Shown here piece by piece: positions 2,773-60,993 of a stretch of 64,000 nucleotides of DNA. The notes under the pieces were generated by a model. That model worked only from the letters and a program-made list of their open reading frames with translations. It did no database searches and was not told where the DNA came from. How positions within the stretch are numbered: position 1 is the first letter of the stretch; the number at the start of each line of letters is the position of its first letter. The translations under genes were made by a program, and so were the position numbers. This DNA comes from a virus, in the IMG/VR virus record IMGVR_UViG_3300045988_099717, positions 82,967-146,966 of that record; one strand, 5' to 3'.

Positions 2773-5700
2773 TAATAACATAGATAGATATAATCCTGCT
2801 GCTAAAACCACTTACGAAGATGTGGCAAGGCAAAGGAAATTAGCTGAAGAAGAAAATTACACTCCGGCTACATTACCAGAGACGACAACGCCTCTGGTTC
2901 CTAATTATATGCCTGGTGAAGGTGTGTATGCCCAACCTAAATTTCCAGATTATGCATCAAGGATAGCTGCTGCCGAATACGAAGAGCCGTATATAGCCAA
3001 GGAGATAAGCAACAGTTACTCGGAGGCACTGGCCCGTAACAGCTACAGGGGGGCTACACCTGCCCCGCCGCCTCTTAATCCCTATGGACCGAAGGTAAGT
3101 ATCCGTGAAAGTCATCAGATGGGTAATGATGGGGTATGGCGTACAAAATATCCCAACTATATTCCGGGTATAAACAATGAAGATTATTATGCCAGGAGAC
3201 AGAGCGGATGGAGTAAGTTTTGGAATGGTGTAGGCAAATTCGCTTTAAAATCCGCATTGTACGGTGCACAAGGAGTTGTGTCATTGCCTGACAAACTTAT
3301 CAATATGGCATCTGAGGGAAGTTACAAAGCTGCGTTAAACACTAACATGGATAAGTTTGTAGGTGATCTTGACCAGCAAATAGACATGCTTCTTCCCCAT
3401 TATTACAAGAAAGAGGTAGAAGATTATAATTTCGGTCAGAAGCTTTTTAAGGATACCGGTAATTTCTTATGGAATGATGTCCTTGGTAACGGAATGTCTT
3501 TTACCGTAGGAGCCATGATATCAGCGTACATGACCGGAGGACTTGGAGTTGGATCATTGGGCAATATAGGTGCTAAATTAGGTGGAAGAATCGGAGCTAA
3601 GTTAGCAGCAAGGCAAGCTGCAAATAGGGGTATAGGAAGCCTTAAAAGCGTGTTTAATGACTATGTAAGAAAAGGAGTTGCTACCGGAAGAAATGTAGGG
3701 GAGGCGGCTAAAACCATGACGTTGTTGGCTACCAGTGCCGGATTCGAGTCATCGGTTGAAGCAAATTCTTTTATGAAGCAATCTGAGTCTGATTTCAAGG
3801 ATTATTATCGTAAGATTTATGGTCGTGATCCCAATGCAGAGGAAATGGCTGTTTTTCGTAATTTTAATGCTGATGTAGGTAGTGCTATATTTGCCGCCAA
3901 TATGGGTATAGTAGGATTATCTAACTGGCTTCTTTTTGGTAAGTATATAGGGTTAGGAGGCAAGGCTATACCAGGGTTGGAAAAGAAGCTCAACAAGCAT
4001 TTATTTGGATTAGGGACGGAAGTTGCGAAGCCGGGAGAGATGGCTATTAAAATAACCAATCCCAATATAGGACAAAAGATAGCAGGCAATGTTTTCAATA
4101 TCATGAAAAGGCCGGTGTCCGAAGGCTTATGGGAAGAAGGATCTCAAGGTGCTGTTCAGAATACGGCTGAGGAATATGTTAAGTCAAGATATGATAATGT
4201 AGCCATGAACGGAGCCGTTGATGTTCTTGATGCTATTTCTGAAGGATTTAAAAAGCAATATACGTCTAAAGAAGGATGGACTGAAATAGGAATCGGTGCT
4301 ATTATCGGTTCTTTGTTTGGTATGAGGGAAGGCTTCTTTGGGGTTAAAGAGTATAGCAATAGTCAGATCTTGCTGGAAAGGCAAGTGAATGAATACAACA
4401 AAGCATCTTCTAATCTTAACACGGCGGCTTTGAATACGTTGAAAAAATCAATGAGTTTAGGGCCTCAAGTTCGTTCCGATGCCCAGTCTATGACTGGCAA
4501 GGAGCTTGATGATGCTATGTTTGAAAAGATGTCTATTGACAACCAAATGGGAACCTTAGAGGATTCGGCTGAAAATTTTAGGCAGATGATTGATATGATG
4601 CCTATTTCGGAAATAGCCGAAGCTAATGGAATGTCTTTGGAAGAGGCAAAGAAATACAAGGATTCTATTATTGATAATTATAACAATCGTCTTTCGGATT
4701 TCAGATCTGCCCAGAGTTTTGCCGAAGATCTTATAGGTGATGATTCTAAGATTGAGTTTAGGAAATACGTGGCTCGTAATGCCTTCCTTGGTCTTCAATC
4801 AGAATCAAGAATGAAAGACATAGCTTCTGTCATAGAAACGCTTTCGGGGCAGCCTCGCGTGGCGGATGCTCTAAGTACGTTCTCCCGGCTGTCGGACAGG
4901 GCAAGGGAACGGGCGATGGCTATCCGTGGCATACGGTCAAGAATAGAAGAACTTGAATCCGAAATAGAAGATCTTGCTACCCGCCCTCGCAACGTAGAAG
5001 GGAAAGATCCACAAGCTGAATCCATACAACGAAAAACCAAAGAATTGGAAAGCCTTAGAACCAATTACAATAATTCGTTGTCTGAGTTATCAACGTTAAT
5101 AGGAAAAGAGTTTTCGATAGAAGAGCTGGTAAGTAAAACCGAATCTGTTTTATCATCTCCTCTTTCTCCCATAAGTTCACAAGATGTGATAGAAGCCTAT
5201 GATACGCTTGTGGCTTTTGATGATTATTTTAATGTAAAATCAAGACAGGAAAAGAAGTTTACAGCCAAAGACAAAGCCATGAGATCCTTGGTAAATGAAT
5301 ACCGAAGAAGTTTGATGGACTATAGGAATATGAATAACTTCTTGTCTAAGATGCTTGATAAAAGATTCTTAGCTGAGGAAAACAGGGGGTTTTCAAAAGC
5401 GCTGTCTTCTCTATGGTCTACTCCTTATAAAGGGGATGACAAGGTTCCTGATTTTGCAGAGTCTAATAAAGTTGGTGAATATGACACTGATGAGGTAGTA
5501 GATCAAGCTGTGTCAGAAGGTAAGATTTCGGAAGACGAAGCTTGGACTATCAAGGCTTTTATGCATGCTCTTGATAAAGTAAGGGAAGATAGGATGAAGG
5601 AAGCAGAAGATGATATAAAAGAGTCACCGCTTACGGAGTCTGTATCGGATGAAGATTATGAGGCTGCTATGGATAATCCTATTATGGTTCCGGCCGTAAG

Positions 5701-12298: not shown

Positions 12299-12931
12299 TA
12301 TATGTGTATATATCAATAACATATAAGAAAAGTTAGATTTTCATTGTTTATGGATTATTTTTATTAAGTTTGCGATATTAGTTTCAGGAAGGGATTATAG
12401 AAAATAGGGAAAAGTAAGAACAGAACGCAACTAATAACGGTAGGAAATGAGAATCAGTACCATCAAACGTAATAACAGCATTCATCTTATGTATAAAAAC
12501 ATTATGAATGATTTAGGTCAATTAAGAACTGTAGTTTCAAAATCCTATATTTATAATCTGATACAAAATCAAACCGGATTAAGTATCAGAACTATATCCC
12601 ATGTCTTGAATCACACAAAAGAACAGGATACAGATTCTTTGTGAAAAGCATACATTTTCATACATTTGTGTGTTCTTTAGTTTTTAGATTTAAGTTTTTC
12701 ATGGTATTAGTTTAGATTAGTGTAGATCAGGGTTCGCAGTGATGCGGGCCCTGGTTTGATTTAAAAAGTATTAAAATATTTGCTATTTAAGATCCTGTTC
12801 CTATCTTTGTTTCAGAAACAATGAACAACGAGATCCCACCTCTGGTTGTTTGATGTTGAAAGATATTTTTGGCTCATTAGGGTTTGTCATAGTGGGATCT
12901 GACATTCTCTTTTGGGCCTATTTTTTTTATC

Positions 12932-19799: not shown

Positions 19800-21125
19800 T
19801 GGGATTTATGATTATTTAACCAACAAAACCACCATACTTTAGTAGGTGGATGAATTGGTTTGATTAATTTTGAATCAAAATTACAGATAAAAAAATGATT
19901 TCATACAAATACAACATCTATCATTCGAAGAAAACGAAGTATCTTGACAAGATGCTTCGTGAATGTTGTTTTGTATGGAATCATGCGTTAGCTCTACAAC
20001 GTAGGTATCACAAACTGTTTGGGAAATATATATCAATTGGTAAAATGAAGAAACATTTTACCAAAAGAATTAAAAGAAATCTTCTTCATTCCCAAACAAC
20101 ACAAGAAATACTTGAACGTCTTGATGAATCTTATAATCGTTTCTTTAAGAAGTTAGCTAAACGACCTCCTAAGTTTAAATCACCGGAGAAATTCAATTCT
20201 TTTGTATTCAAACAAGGTGGTTTTACCCTGAATGGTAATTGTTTAACAATTAACAAAGGAAAGAAACGATTTAGATTCTCATACAGTAGAGTCTACGAAG
20301 GTAATGTTAAACAAATTAGAATAGTTAGAGAAACGTGTTCCCGTTTTAGTTTGATTATAGTTACAGACTATAATCCTATAAACTCCTATAGAAAGACACA
20401 TGATGGTGCATCTATAGGATTGGATTTTGGCCTGAAAACTTATCTAACTAAAAGCGATGGTAGCAAAATCGATTCTCCATTATTCTTAAAACAATATCAA
20501 AACAAGATTAGAAAACTAAACAAACGGCTTTCTAATGCAAAGAAAGGATCCAACAATAGAAGAAGGAGATTGTTTGAACTCCAACAAACGTATCGTAAAA
20601 TAAACGATCTTCGATCGGATTTTCAATGGGGATTAGCACACCAGTTATGCAAACAGTATGATTATATTTTTATTGAAGATCTAAACATTGAAGGAATGAA
20701 ACGTTTGTGGGGAAAGAAAGTTTCTGATCTCAGTCATTCTTCTTTTATTGATAAGCTAATGTATGTTTCTTCAAAGTATGGAGTAACGATACACAAGATT
20801 GACAAATGGTATCCTTCTTCCAAAACTTGTGAATGTGGCTGCATTAATAAAGGACTGTCGTTACGCGACCGCACGTGGGTGTGCCCAGCGTGCGGAGCGA
20901 TTAACGACCGTGATGTTCTTGCAGCTAAAAATATTCTTCGGAAGGGCATTTCCGAATTGGAGAGCAAGAGTAATTCCAGCGATAGTAATATCGGGGTTTC
21001 TTGCGTTTGTATCCAAGAATCCCATTCGCTTTAGCGATGGGAGTATGTCAAACTGGTAATTGCATAATTTAATTGAACGTAAATCCAAAGGACCCCAGTG
21101 AATCCTTTTTTGACGTATATGATAG
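19800..21125 (+). mobile_element. Candidate IS200/IS605-family element carrying only tnpB (IS1341-like); boundaries approximate
   Basis: An intact TnpB ORF. A hairpin ccacc-N11-ggtgg lies upstream at about 19834-19854. A hairpin aaagga-N10-tccttt followed by TTTT lies downstream at about 21093-21118. The 3' flank could encode a guide (omega) RNA. Confidence 0.5.
19895..21034 (+). CDS. tnpB: TnpB (IS200/IS605 OrfB-type RuvC-like nuclease, RNA-guided family)
   Basis: The N-terminus YKYNIYHSKKTKYLDKMLRECCFVWNHALA is typical of TnpB. A RuvC-I-like D is present (GLDFGLK), an E in FIEDLN, a zinc finger CECGC...CPACG, and a C-terminal DRDVLAAKNI (RuvC-III). Confidence 0.85.
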   Translation: MISYKYNIYHSKKTKYLDKMLRECCFVWNHALALQRRYHKLFGKYISIGKMKKHFTKRIKRNLLHSQTTQEILERLDESYNRFFKKLAKRPPKFKSPEKFNSFVFKQGGFTLNGNCLTINKGKKRFRFSYSRVYEGNVKQIRIVRETCSRFSLIIVTDYNPINSYRKTHDGASIGLDFGLKTYLTKSDGSKIDSPLFLKQYQNKIRKLNKRLSNAKKGSNNRRRRLFELQQTYRKINDLRSDFQWGLAHQLCKQYDYIFIEDLNIEGMKRLWGKKVSDLSHSSFIDKLMYVSSKYGVTIHKIDKWYPSSKTCECGCINKGLSLRDRTWVCPACGAINDRDVLAAKNILRKGISELESKSNSSDSNIGVSCVCIQESHSL

Positions 21126-59027: not shown

Positions 59028-59091
59028 GTGGGACGGAGCGGAATCGAACCGCTCTGACGCATGGCTTATGTGACCACTCCCTTTCGTCCCA
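59028..59091 (-). tRNA. tRNA-like element, apparently truncated: no D-arm and no encoded CCA
   Basis: In RNA sense: GGGACGA-AAGGGA-GTGGT CACATAA GCCAT-GCGTCAG-AGCGG TTCGATT CCGCT-CCGTCCC-A. The T-arm is canonical (GGTTCGATTCC). The acceptor halves match at 6 of 7 positions. The anticodon-like loop CACATAA has A rather than U at position 33. The element is only about 62 nt, so a full cloverleaf cannot form. Confidence 0.35.
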
Positions 59092-59375
59092 AAACTCCCC
59101 TCTGCATATCCTCACGGACGGCAAGGGGAAACTAACCTAAACTAATACCATGCAAAACATACTATTCGACTATTCCCAGACTTTCCAATCCGGGATGTAT
59201 TCGTAATCATTCATTTCAAGCTCCTTTCTAATTTACGGGCCATCTTCCTGCATCTGCGGGCTACATCCAGATCGACCGGCTTAGAGCAGTTGGTGTCTAT
59301 TAGTACTTGCGATCGATTGAGCAGACCTATGATTGTTTTAATATCTGTTTTACTTATCCTGTCTTCATCCTCAAG

Positions 59376-60344
59376 TCATGGAACCTCTATCTTGTCGAAG
59401 TCAATGCCGTGTTCGTTCATGAAGTTGCCGAGAGCGATAATATTTTCACGGGTTGTTGTGACCTTGAAGGCACGAGTTAGAAGTTCCGGCTGTGCCGGCA
59501 CAGGCTGTTCTTTAGGCTGATCCATAAAAGAAGGTTGCCTATTCATCCTTTGATTAGCCGTATTAAAAGGATTGGGTTGGCTAACTTTGGGTTGTTCTGC
59601 TTCTACTTTCTTACGTGCTTCTTCCTGTTCTTTTCGTTCCTGTTCAGCTTTGATACGTGCTTCTTCTGCTGCTTGGGCACGTTCGCGTTGTTCCTTCAGA
59701 CGATTAGCATACTGGATGGTATTGCCAATGTTCATCGTGTCCATATAGTATGTGCGAAGTACGTCAAAATCATCACCGCCAAAGCCTTTAAGCGTTTCAA
59801 GATCTTCGTCAACCTTAGCGAAAACCGTTTCAATGTCTGCTTGTACCGCTTTCATGCTTGTGGACTTGTTAAGCCATTCCTGCTTGAAGATTTTCCGAAA
59901 GTCGATCAGAGTCGTATTTCCATCGTCGAAGTAGGAACGGATAACGGCAAGTTTCTTGTCTTTATACTGCTGTTCGTTCTGCTTGACTACCGTGTCAATC
60001 TTGGCAGAGCATTCGCCAATCAATTTTACGGTTTCAGCCACAACTTCCTTGAACTCCCCGAAAGGTTTCATAAATTCCTTTTCGATTTCAAGACGTTTTG
60101 AGTTGAGAAGTTTGGCCGCCTTGTTGAGAGCAGCTTTATCTCTCTTCGCTTGGTCGATATTGTCATCGTTATAGTTAGATATATCGTACATGGGAAGAGT
60201 TGATTTTACCATGTCTCTGATTTGGATCGCATTAGTAGTAAGGCTACCTAATGTTTTTTCACTAACGACCAGTTCAAGATCGCTTTCTTTGATTGCTAAT
60301 TGTGTGTTCATTTCTCTATATTTTTTATTAGTCCCATCCACCAT
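59376..60344 (-). CDS. Hypothetical coiled-coil protein
   Basis: 322-aa ORF. The K/E-rich central region is encoded by a local GC-rich patch. Confidence 0.5.
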   Translation of the reverse strand: MVDGTNKKYREMNTQLAIKESDLELVVSEKTLGSLTTNAIQIRDMVKSTLPMYDISNYNDDNIDQAKRDKAALNKAAKLLNSKRLEIEKEFMKPFGEFKEVVAETVKLIGECSAKIDTVVKQNEQQYKDKKLAVIRSYFDDGNTTLIDFRKIFKQEWLNKSTSMKAVQADIETVFAKVDEDLETLKGFGGDDFDVLRTYYMDTMNIGNTIQYANRLKEQRERAQAAEEARIKAEQERKEQEEARKKVEAEQPKVSQPNPFNTANQRMNRQPSFMDQPKEQPVPAQPELLTRAFKVTTTRENIIALGNFMNEHGIDFDKIEVP

Positions 60345-60993
60345 TATTATACATGGATAAATCGGCAGAATCTAAATCCGTTTTCTGAATAGCTTCTAAA
60401 AGTTTTTTCTTGGTTTCCCGACACATGTCATAACCATAGCCTTTGTACCGGTATGTACGCTCCCATGTGCTGATTGGGAAAGGAATATTTTCGTCAATGA
60501 CCAGCCTCTTCATATGAAGATGTTCGAAGAATTTCTCATGATAGAGTAGTTTGTACTCGTATGCTACTATACTTGCAGATGAGAATGGAAAATAATCATC
60601 TTCCTTTTCTTCGTATTTAGGCTCCTTATAGTAAGCCATTTTTGCCACAGTAAAGTCGAAGCTCCTGAGAATCTCTTCTGGCTTTCCGAACTCTGACTCT
60701 ATGAACTCTACCCATACCTTTTCTCCCTCTTTCTGGAATGCGCATACCTTCTCATTCCTATACTTAAATTTCCATCCTTCTTTCTGATGTCTTCCTTCAT
60801 TGAACAAATTAACAGCTTCCTGAAAATCGCTTTCACTTTCAAAGAAAATATCAATGTCTTTTACTCTTTCTCCGGAAAGGATATTCTTAAAACATCCTCC
60901 GGCAATGAATCCTTTATGACCTTCCATGTATTTGTCAAGCCATCTTATTTGCCCAAAATTGTCAGGTGTATTTTTCTGATAGTTAGTTTCCAT
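60328..60993 (-). CDS. Polymerase-beta-superfamily nucleotidyltransferase (CCA/poly(A)-polymerase head-like motif)
   Basis: FIAGGCFKNILSGERVKDIDIFF follows the hGG..R..L.G...KDIDI pattern of tRNA nucleotidyltransferase and poly(A) polymerase head domains. A later acidic residue lies in SFDFTV. Confidence 0.4.
   Translation of the reverse strand: METNYQKNTPDNFGQIRWLDKYMEGHKGFIAGGCFKNILSGERVKDIDIFFESESDFQEAVNLFNEGRHQKEGWKFKYRNEKVCAFQKEGEKVWVEFIESEFGKPEEILRSFDFTVAKMAYYKEPKYEEKEDDYFPFSSASIVAYEYKLLYHEKFFEHLHMKRLVIDENIPFPISTWERTYRYKGYGYDMCRETKKKLLEAIQKTDLDSADLSMYNNGGWD

Follow-up and report, generated by a model that had tools for sequence, protein, structure and literature searches.

A FopS-like sRNA and a tRNA-like element in tandem

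In the MALAT1-mascRNA and MEN-beta transcripts of mammals and in the TMER units of murine gammaherpesvirus 68, a functional non-coding RNA adjoins a tRNA-like structure that does not decode; cleavage by RNase P or RNase Z sets an end of the neighboring RNA and yields the tRNA-like piece as a by-product. To recognize a tRNA, RNase P, RNase Z and the enzyme that adds CCA need only the stack formed by the acceptor stem and the T arm. The locus described here occupies positions 59029 to 59160 on the minus strand of a 64,000-nucleotide stretch of a large gut phage (positions 82,967 to 146,966 of IMG/VR virus record IMGVR_UViG_3300045988_099717), the whole of which is referred to below as the window, and it places a D-armless tRNA-like element of 62 nt directly behind a gene for a small RNA (sRNA) resembling the FopS sRNAs of Bacteroides. 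On the basis of its sequence and that of its relatives, we tentatively propose, with slightly less than even confidence, that this locus is one composite non-coding RNA gene in which the tRNA-like element would serve as a handle for RNase P and RNase Z, releasing the embedded sRNA.

Host FopS sRNAs are 65-70 nt long, are composed of a single-stranded seed followed by a terminator hairpin, and are bound by the RNA-binding protein RbpB (PMC11697453). The 5' seed of FopS and of GibS (Rfam RF04319 and RF04182, respectively) pairs with the start-codon region of susC-type mRNAs, blocking their translation, and the presence of a FopS sequence in one Caudovirales phage was already noted by the FopS authors (PMC11697453). 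An earlier interpretation of the window (the sequence-only reading) had singled out the tRNA-like element together with a nucleotidyltransferase (NTase) gene nearby; the FopS-like sRNA directly upstream, which that interpretation missed, is the neighbor that matters.

The sRNA, at 59091..59160 on the minus strand, resembles FopS and GibS in its length of about 70 nt, its single-stranded 5' seed and its 3' hairpin with a GUGA-type loop, and its seed reads AUGUUUUGCAUGGUAUUAG-UUUA-GGUUAG, compared with the FopS consensus GUGUUUUUCAUgGUAUUAGAUUUAAGGUUAA. A second, stand-alone FopS-like gene, against which the fused copy is compared, is located at 12692..12765 on the plus strand. Unlike the described families, both copies fall below the Rfam gathering score and share two 1-nt deletions in the seed, while the copy at 59091-59160 additionally lies within an operon, possesses a U4 tail only, is fused to a tRNA-like element and lacks a canonical promoter that could be recognized. 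The tandem arrangement recalls the MALAT1-mascRNA, MEN-beta and TMER units, from which it differs in that those are eukaryotic or herpesviral, whereas the present locus belongs to a Bacteroidales phage, is embedded in a protein-coding operon and has predicted cleavage sites; moreover, the tRNA-like part of the TMERs stands upstream and supplies the promoter.

Structure and conservation of the tRNA-like element

The tRNA-like element (59029..59090, minus strand) was delimited from its sequence, its fold and its diverged homologs, and reads GGGACGA-AAGGGA-GTGGT-CACATAA-GCCAT-GCGTCAG-AGCGG-TTCGATT-CCGCT-CCGTCCC-A from G1 (59090) to the discriminator A (59029). Its acceptor strands GGGACGA (59084-59090) and CCGTCCC (59030-59035/6) pair at six of seven positions or, alternatively, form 6 bp stacked on a 6-bp T stem. 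The T arm, GAGCGG-TTCGATT-CCGCTC (59036-59054, with the T loop UUCGAUU at 59042-59048), contains GGTTCGATTCC with a loop of the GTTCGAnnC form, and the 64-kb window contains the pattern GGTTCRANTCC a single time, 0.21 occurrences being expected. Only 6 nt (AAGGGA) occupy the position of the D arm, between the acceptor and a degenerate anticodon-like hairpin (about 59056-59077); this weak middle hairpin, GTGGT-CACATAA-GCCAT, displays CAT at the anticodon position and an A in place of U33. The discriminator is followed by CAAAT, with no encoded CCA. RNAfold, applied to a 65-mer, returned a three-way junction composed of a 6-7-bp acceptor, the weak middle hairpin and the 6-bp T stem (-25.3 kcal/mol, z = -2.65).

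These outputs bear out the sequence-only reading in its description of a minus-strand element of approximately 62 nt with a T arm, an acceptor paired at six of seven positions, no D arm and an A at position 33. The ACA in place of an encoded CCA, to which it also drew attention, was seen as well, but the missing CCA is uninformative as a distinguishing mark because a full encoded CCA is likewise absent from a host tRNA-Ser gene (locus L192; loci compared with the window carry L numbers) and from phage tRNA-Met and tRNA-Thr genes of related loci. In the covariance-model check that it suggested, no Rfam match to the element was obtained at the gathering score, and at E<=10 only the T arm matched, to tmRNA models (E 0.08-0.6). 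ARAGORN called 0 tRNAs and 0 tmRNAs over the window. Close relatives (L002, L013, L015 and L016, among others) carry a canonical 77-nt tRNA-Met(CAT) gene ~5.1 kb upstream of the element; synteny would place this gene near position 64180, past the end of the window, and the absence of tRNA calls may thus represent an edge effect.

Assignment of the element as a tmRNA or tmRNA-like RNA was rejected, the T arm being its sole match and ARAGORN being negative, as was a Y-RNA (YrlA)-type mimic, since the 5' and 3' ends form an acceptor stem, which is the wrong topology, and no Rfam match was found. Like the minihelix substrates of RNase P and of CCA-adding enzymes and the tRNA-like domain of tmRNA (PMC3985003), the element conserves only a 12-bp acceptor/T stack and a T loop and has no functional anticodon arm, its best Rfam T-arm matches being tmRNA models; it differs from tmRNA in possessing G3-C70 (not G3.U70), no tag reading frame and no pseudoknots. 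The D-armless tRNAs of mitochondria (e.g., metazoan mt-tRNA-Ser(AGY)) share a short connector in place of the D arm and a length of about 60 nt, but they decode and retain a 7-nt anticodon loop with U33 on a paired stem, whereas the stem of the element is not maintained and position 33 is an A.

A 26-mer covering the T arm and acceptor was found in 26 IMG/VR contigs, with both flanks constant in all of them, and a 22-mer from the same part was present in 0 of the genomes of 185,579 species. Diverged homologs were retrieved via the neighboring DUF4494 protein. In lineage B (L072/L073), whose neighboring proteins are 55-83% identical to those of the window, the element is kept at the same position; its T stem has changed from GAGCGG/CCGCTC to GGGAGG/CCTCCC through two compensatory pairs and its acceptor pair A4-U69 has become G.U, with no change in the T loop or in the 3' strand of the acceptor. 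In lineage A' (L062), one T-stem pair has changed from A-U to G-C and another is broken. The "anticodon" stem, for its part, decays: GTGGT becomes GTGAT or GTAAT opposite an unchanged GCCAT, with one to two pairs lost in variants and in lineage B, and a conserved anticodon-like stem was accordingly discarded as an interpretation. Compensatory changes in the T stem and acceptor, coupled with a decaying anticodon stem, therefore show that selection maintains the acceptor/T-arm minihelix rather than an arm for decoding. By this comparative evidence, the tRNA-like element is real, conserved and under selection.

Four relatives of the window (L062, L116, L122 and L124) harbor a homing-endonuclease-like gene, whose product has a C-terminal ...GIKHQNISRVCNGKYRQAGGFRWKF motif, between the tRNA-like element and the DUF4494 gene, and in the same four loci the 3' two thirds of the element have been swapped for a diverged version. 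Judged from sequence, the diverged part beside this gene looks like a co-conversion tract.

The FopS-like sRNA

The 70-nt sRNA was assigned on the basis of an Rfam FopS match, homologous modules, published FopS sequences and its fold. Its seed-like, single-stranded 5' part (59128-59160) is followed by a hairpin with a GUGA tetraloop (about 59095-59131) and by a U4 tail (59091-59094), which ends 0 nt before G1 of the tRNA-like element, all on the minus strand. The top of the hairpin is an invariant 21-nt core, GCCGTCCGTGAGGATATGCAG (59102-59122), which occurs once in the window and is identical in lineages A and B, between which the outer stem differs. The composite of sRNA and tRNA-like element is predicted to fold as independent domains, and no terminator-like site was scored on the minus strand at 59091-59131.

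The match of 59128-59160 to the Rfam FopS model (RF04319) is weak at 17.7 bits, aligning to model positions 1-31 with most positions matching and a 2-nt gap. It is confirmed by three further observations: the full FopS model matches the homologous module of L149 with 31.5 bits (E 0.0036); 59128-59160 can be aligned both with the 5' end of FopS-10, GTGTTTTTCATAGTATTAG, and with the universal probe for FopS, whose reverse complement is GTATTAGATTTAAGGTTAACAAA (sequences from the supplement of PMC11697453); and the FopS consensus hairpin also carries a GuGa loop. The seed match is near-perfect in the module homologs L149 and L230-L334. By eye, the seed GCAUGG is complementary to CCAUGC in the tRNA-like element; this complementarity is absent in lineage B and was taken as chance.

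The stand-alone copy at 12692-12765, found by seed complementarity, scores 29.9 bits (E 0.0075) against the full FopS model and carries the same seed variant, with its two 1-nt deletions, as the copy at 59091-59160. It comprises a strong GUGA-capped hairpin (fold z = -5.2) with a UUUGAUUU tail, has no tRNA-like element behind it, and lies between two plus-strand open reading frames (ORFs) of the structural-gene region; a TAGTTTTT (-7-like) box was recognized upstream by eye, and a simple terminator scan did not flag the site.

A family of sRNA and tRNA-like modules

When IMG/VR and metagenomes were searched with the GCCGTCCGTGAGGATATGCAG hairpin stretch alone, more phages were recovered in which the same hairpin is followed, 3-7 nt on, by very different tRNA-like elements, examples being one of 116 nt with a D arm (L119), one of about 83 nt (L108) and one of 78 nt with G3.U70 (L149). 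A scan of IMG/VR with only the seed returned 72 distinct phage FopS-like loci, in about 60 of which the core hairpin is followed by a tRNA-like element after 0-7 nt. Searches seeded on the hairpin only or on the seed only thus returned the same architecture. Among 78 distinct core-hairpin contexts, 64 were followed by an element that combines a T loop and T stem with an acceptor of 6-7 bp, the 5' strand of which begins no more than 26 nt away, compared with 468 of 20,000 random windows drawn from the same loci; the 14 exceptions comprise nine U-tailed terminator-type hairpins, one long element, one context with nothing behind the hairpin (L257) and three GC-rich chance matches.

At least 8 body types were distinguished among the tRNA-like partners, which measure 61-201 nt and may or may not possess a D arm, and the only features shared by all body types are G+1, the acceptor and the T arm. 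Such an interchangeable body fits a generic handle, as opposed to an anticodon-specific function. In fused copies of every type but A, the hairpin is not followed by a U tract (AUUCC, GUUC, AUUUC or CAAACAC being found there), while stand-alone copies (12692-12765, L235, L243, L263 and L278) have other hairpins and U-rich tails; as the nine terminator-type contexts are also U-tailed, the U tract and the tRNA-like element tend toward mutual exclusion. The distance of 0-7 nt from hairpin to G+1 leaves no room for a separate promoter, and the flanking genes are co-oriented at the window locus, L119, L149 and BF1-TP2. The last of these, the one cultured example, is a Bacteroides phage (PQ571263.1; host B. 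fragilis BL19) with a type-F module at about 3740-3935 (also L337, 1497-1690), which includes a 116-nt tRNA-like element and is annotated as the coding sequence of a hypothetical protein (gp8). No description of a tandem of sRNA and tRNA-like element in bacteria or phages was found in the searchable literature.

A 17-nt core of the hairpin, CGTCCGTGAGGATATGC, also occurs in U-tailed terminators of host genomes, namely in L213 (a metagenome-assembled genome [MAG] of Phocaeicola vulgatus), L192 (a Bacteroidaceae MAG) and L175. The terminator in L213 stands behind an sRNA-like gene with a textbook TTTG/TAtaTTTG promoter, and that in L192 behind the tRNA-Ser gene. The notion that the upstream hairpin substitutes for the D arm, or is specific to tRNA-like elements, was discarded on account of these host terminators and the nine U-tailed phage contexts.

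A second family of phage tRNA-like elements (L005, L011, L071, L143, L119 at 1565-1631, and L196) possesses full D and T arms, an anticodon stem capped by a loop of only 3-5 nt (e.g., CCCC-UACC-GGGG), and G3.U70 with A73. A different hairpin, GCCGGGAAAGACCGGC, stands 4-5 nt upstream of its members, which ARAGORN labels "tRNA-???" with a 2-nt anticodon.

Proposed processing of the composite RNA

The features associated with a processing handle are present in the tRNA-like element, these being the 6 + 6 bp acceptor/T stack, the T loop, the U-1/G+1 junction and a 5' leader. Because conservation is limited to the minihelix, the body is interchangeable, room for a promoter is absent, the flanking genes are co-oriented, and the U tract and tRNA-like element tend to exclude one another, release of the sRNA by processing is the reading that we favor, at the tentative level stated above. 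According to this model, the 5' 70 nt would represent a phage homolog of the Bacteroides FopS/GibS sRNAs, and the 3' 62 nt a minimal tRNA mimic that keeps the T loop and the coaxial minihelix of 12 bp formed by acceptor and T arm. Transcription would pass through the weak U4 tail, whereupon host RNase P would cleave between U-1 and G+1 (59091/59090), so that the 3' end of the sRNA would be fixed immediately after the hairpin that protects it. RNase Z would then cleave 3' of A59029, freeing the downstream DUF4494 mRNA. The sRNA could in this manner be produced inside an operon without a terminator that silences downstream genes, and the released tRNA-like piece, possibly CCA-tailed, would be a by-product.

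More speculatively, Bacteroidales phages may possess a widespread and apparently undescribed class of composite RNAs, in which a FopS mimic is joined to a tRNA-like handle that is excised from a phage operon by host RNase P and RNase Z. Since host FopS silences SusC-type outer membrane transporters, the phage copy could alter glycan uptake or surface receptors, conceivably reprogramming the former or removing the latter (superinfection exclusion). Were this so, the composite would represent a bacterial counterpart of MALAT1-mascRNA or of the herpesvirus tRNA-miRNA units. Should the favored processing model be correct, a tRNA-like structure would serve as a processing signal in phage gene expression, and a whole population of such elements would have been missed by tRNA callers. 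Gut phages would, furthermore, carry copies of a host sRNA family that controls polysaccharide-utilization transporters, a direct route along which they could change the nutrient uptake and surface composition of Bacteroides, and the module would offer a natural, compact design for the release of small RNAs from polycistronic Bacteroides transcripts.

Several points weigh against processing of this kind. Transcription, cleavage sites and stability are all deduced from sequence. The FopS matches (17.7 and 29.9 bits for the two window copies and 31.5 bits for L149) are below the Rfam gathering score of 56, and no sigma-ABfr-type promoter (a TTTG/TAnnTTTG pair) was recognized by eye upstream of 59160, and the 5' end of the sRNA is accordingly provisional. 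The U4 tail of type A makes partial termination possible, and a handle may therefore be less needed here. L257 harbors a hairpin of the fused type with neither a U tract nor a tRNA-like element, and in L196 a small ORF intervenes between hairpin and tRNA-like element. The model offers no reason for the strictness with which the core of the hairpin is conserved. Finally, the pair statistics of the 16 distinct acceptor/T-arm combinations (G+1 in 16/16, 93.8% of cells paired, and double changes at 8 of 12 pairs) are partly circular and mainly show diversity, because the elements had been chosen for pairing.

The neighboring nucleotidyltransferase

The sequence-only reading had envisaged a functional link between the tRNA-like element and the NTase encoded at 60328..60993 (minus strand; 221 aa), between the YqaJ exonuclease and DUF1351 genes. 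The NTase motif that it recognized in this ORF is indeed present as GGCFKNILSGERVKDIDIF (GGx(12)DIDI), and the structure prediction that it called for recovered a head fold followed by a C-terminal part: in the AlphaFold model (predicted local distance difference test [pLDDT] score of 76.9), residues 1-130 are well defined, and each of the top 39 PDB matches returned by Foldseek is either a class II CCA-, CC- or A-adding enzyme or poly(A) polymerase I (PAP I), the NTase aligning over about 110-170 residues to enzymes of 340-520 aa. Residues G32, G33, D46, D48, E96 and D113-F114-T115 are invariant in 27 homologs. As modeled, the head is a class II CCA/poly(A)-polymerase pol-beta fold with a motif A of the form GGx(9-13)DxD.

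The NTase was compared with class II tRNA nucleotidyltransferases and PAP I, as well as with the stand-alone "CCA-adding enzyme head domain" PDB 2LA3. Unlike the class II enzymes and PAP I, its 221 residues include no neck, body or tail domain, and the base-selecting EDxxR motif (motif D) is absent, the aligned stretch FPISTWERxYRY being without ED or R5 in a part of the model with pLDDT <50. The Pfam PolyA_pol score is 14.8 bits against a cut-off of 23, and no significant Pfam or NCBIfam family was found; in PHROGs, the protein belongs to phrog_4400 (unknown function), with a weak match to an NTase family. From sequence and model together, the NTase is a head-domain-only relative and not a demonstrable CCA-adding enzyme. 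Many of its close homologs (P0002-P0010) are about 311 aa long and have an N-terminal extension of ~90 aa that is absent from the window protein, and all carry the precomputed label PF26128.

A partnership between NTase and element is not supported and was rejected on their patterns of presence and absence. In 66 of 96 related loci that contain the element and both flanking genes, the YqaJ and DUF1351 genes follow one another with no NTase between them, 11 nt apart except in three loci, where the distance is 41 or 38 nt; among the unique IMG/VR contigs with the element, 11 carry the NTase and 23 do not. In csAssE-Sib, the closest cultured relative, the NTase is present (86% identical, annotated as "polyA polymerase") and the RNA module is absent. 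The NTase family is represented in 116 cultured phages of Firmicutes, Bacteroidota and Proteobacteria (Streptococcus, Listeria, Bacillus, Maribacter and Aeromonas, among others), and Listeria phage P35 and Bacteroides phage BF503P4 possess the NTase and no tRNA. Judged by its distribution, the NTase is an independent, facultative and widely distributed accessory cassette that is not tied to the RNA element. In BF503P4 (L229, 6861-10376), the homolog stands among two dCMP hydroxymethyltransferase-like genes and a dUTPase gene, a neighborhood which hints at a role of the family in nucleotide or DNA-modification metabolism.

Alternative explanations

It is possible, albeit unlikely, that the tRNA-like element is itself the product, a free mimic of the top half of a tRNA acting as decoy, sponge or substrate for tRNA-binding proteins such as host toxins of the acceptor end, modification enzymes, and enzymes of the CCA-adding or NTase kind, among them the phage NTase in those phages that have it. 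Such a role would accord with the compensatory change that preserves acceptor and T arm, with the CCA encoded after the discriminator in several family members (type E variants, L280 of type G and L244 of type H), with the alanine identity pair G3.U70 plus A73 in type E and in the second, anticodon-less family, and with the CCA/PAP head fold of the NTase. It would leave unexplained the near-constant FopS-like hairpin 0-7 nt upstream, as well as the interchangeability of the body types; G3.U70 is absent from the window element, for which alanine identity was accordingly discarded (it is seen in types E and "2"), and the NTase is missing from about two thirds of the phages with the identical element and present in phages without it. 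An active species of about 135 nt, in which the two parts remain joined and the tRNA-like element caps the 3' end, stabilizing the sRNA or recruiting proteins, appears improbable. The same adjacency and co-occurrence data, along with the folding of the composite into independent domains, would suit it equally, but a 5' leader followed by a G+1 minihelix is, as a matter of general knowledge, a canonical RNase P substrate for which cleavage would be expected, and a stable hairpin with a GNRA cap already closes the sRNA at its 3' end. The FopS sRNAs of the host, in addition, are 65-70 nt long (PMC11697453).

The two origins considered by the sequence-only reading concern the element more narrowly. 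A decaying pseudogene of a phage tRNA such as tRNA-Met(CAU), deprived of its D arm by deletion and of any present function, is very improbable. In its favor, the anticodon position reads CAT, the variant GATCAC.CATAA is similar to the anticodon arm of the genuine tRNA-Met that related phages carry about 5 kb away, the anticodon stem shows decay, and the element is not accepted by tRNA callers. Retention at the same position across lineages whose neighboring proteins are 55-83% identical, compensatory T-stem changes, and recurrence of the architecture with unrelated tRNA-like bodies in many phages all speak against it; a deletion remnant of a phage tRNA may thus describe where the element came from, but not its present state, in which acceptor and T arm are preserved by compensatory change. 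It is hardly credible that the element is an attP-like piece of a host tRNA gene serving integration. Many attP cores do contain the 3' half of a tRNA, comprising T arm and acceptor, but here the 5' acceptor strand is present too, the closest relative is a 151-kb phage genome, and no integrase was found among the neighboring genes or the 10 large window ORFs scanned. The flanks, identical in all 26+ contigs, and the absence of the 22-mer from the genomes of 185,579 species exclude a host tRNA fragment of this kind. Release of the sRNA by host RNase P and RNase Z is the explanation that we retain, at the tentative level given.

Genomic setting

Between 36 and 56 kb, the window is 94.6% identical to the 151-kb phage csAssE-Sib. 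The composite locus sits in a co-oriented array of recombination and replication genes, with DUF1351 on one side and DUF4494 on the other; in order, and all on the minus strand, the array comprises RecT, the YqaJ exonuclease, the NTase, DUF1351, a gap of 380 nt with the element, DUF4494, VRR-NUC and a replication initiator. Within the structural-gene region, at 19895-21034 on the plus strand, lies a gene for a transposase (phrog_506, E 9.5e-90).

Small ORFs accompany several of the modules. A conserved micro-ORF of 14 aa, MNDYEYIPDWKVWE, lies at 59170-59214 (minus strand), just upstream of the FopS-like sRNA, and has counterparts in L072 (MTDHDCEYIPDRKVWI) and L196 (MVENEYIPDWKVWG). In BF1-TP2 (type F), a related small acidic ORF, MDFGNYIPDYDPEVFDNYDYE, which shares the YIPD[YW] motif, is located just downstream of the tRNA-like element, and ORFs starting with MDFG are also found 3' of the tRNA-like element in type G and in some type E loci.

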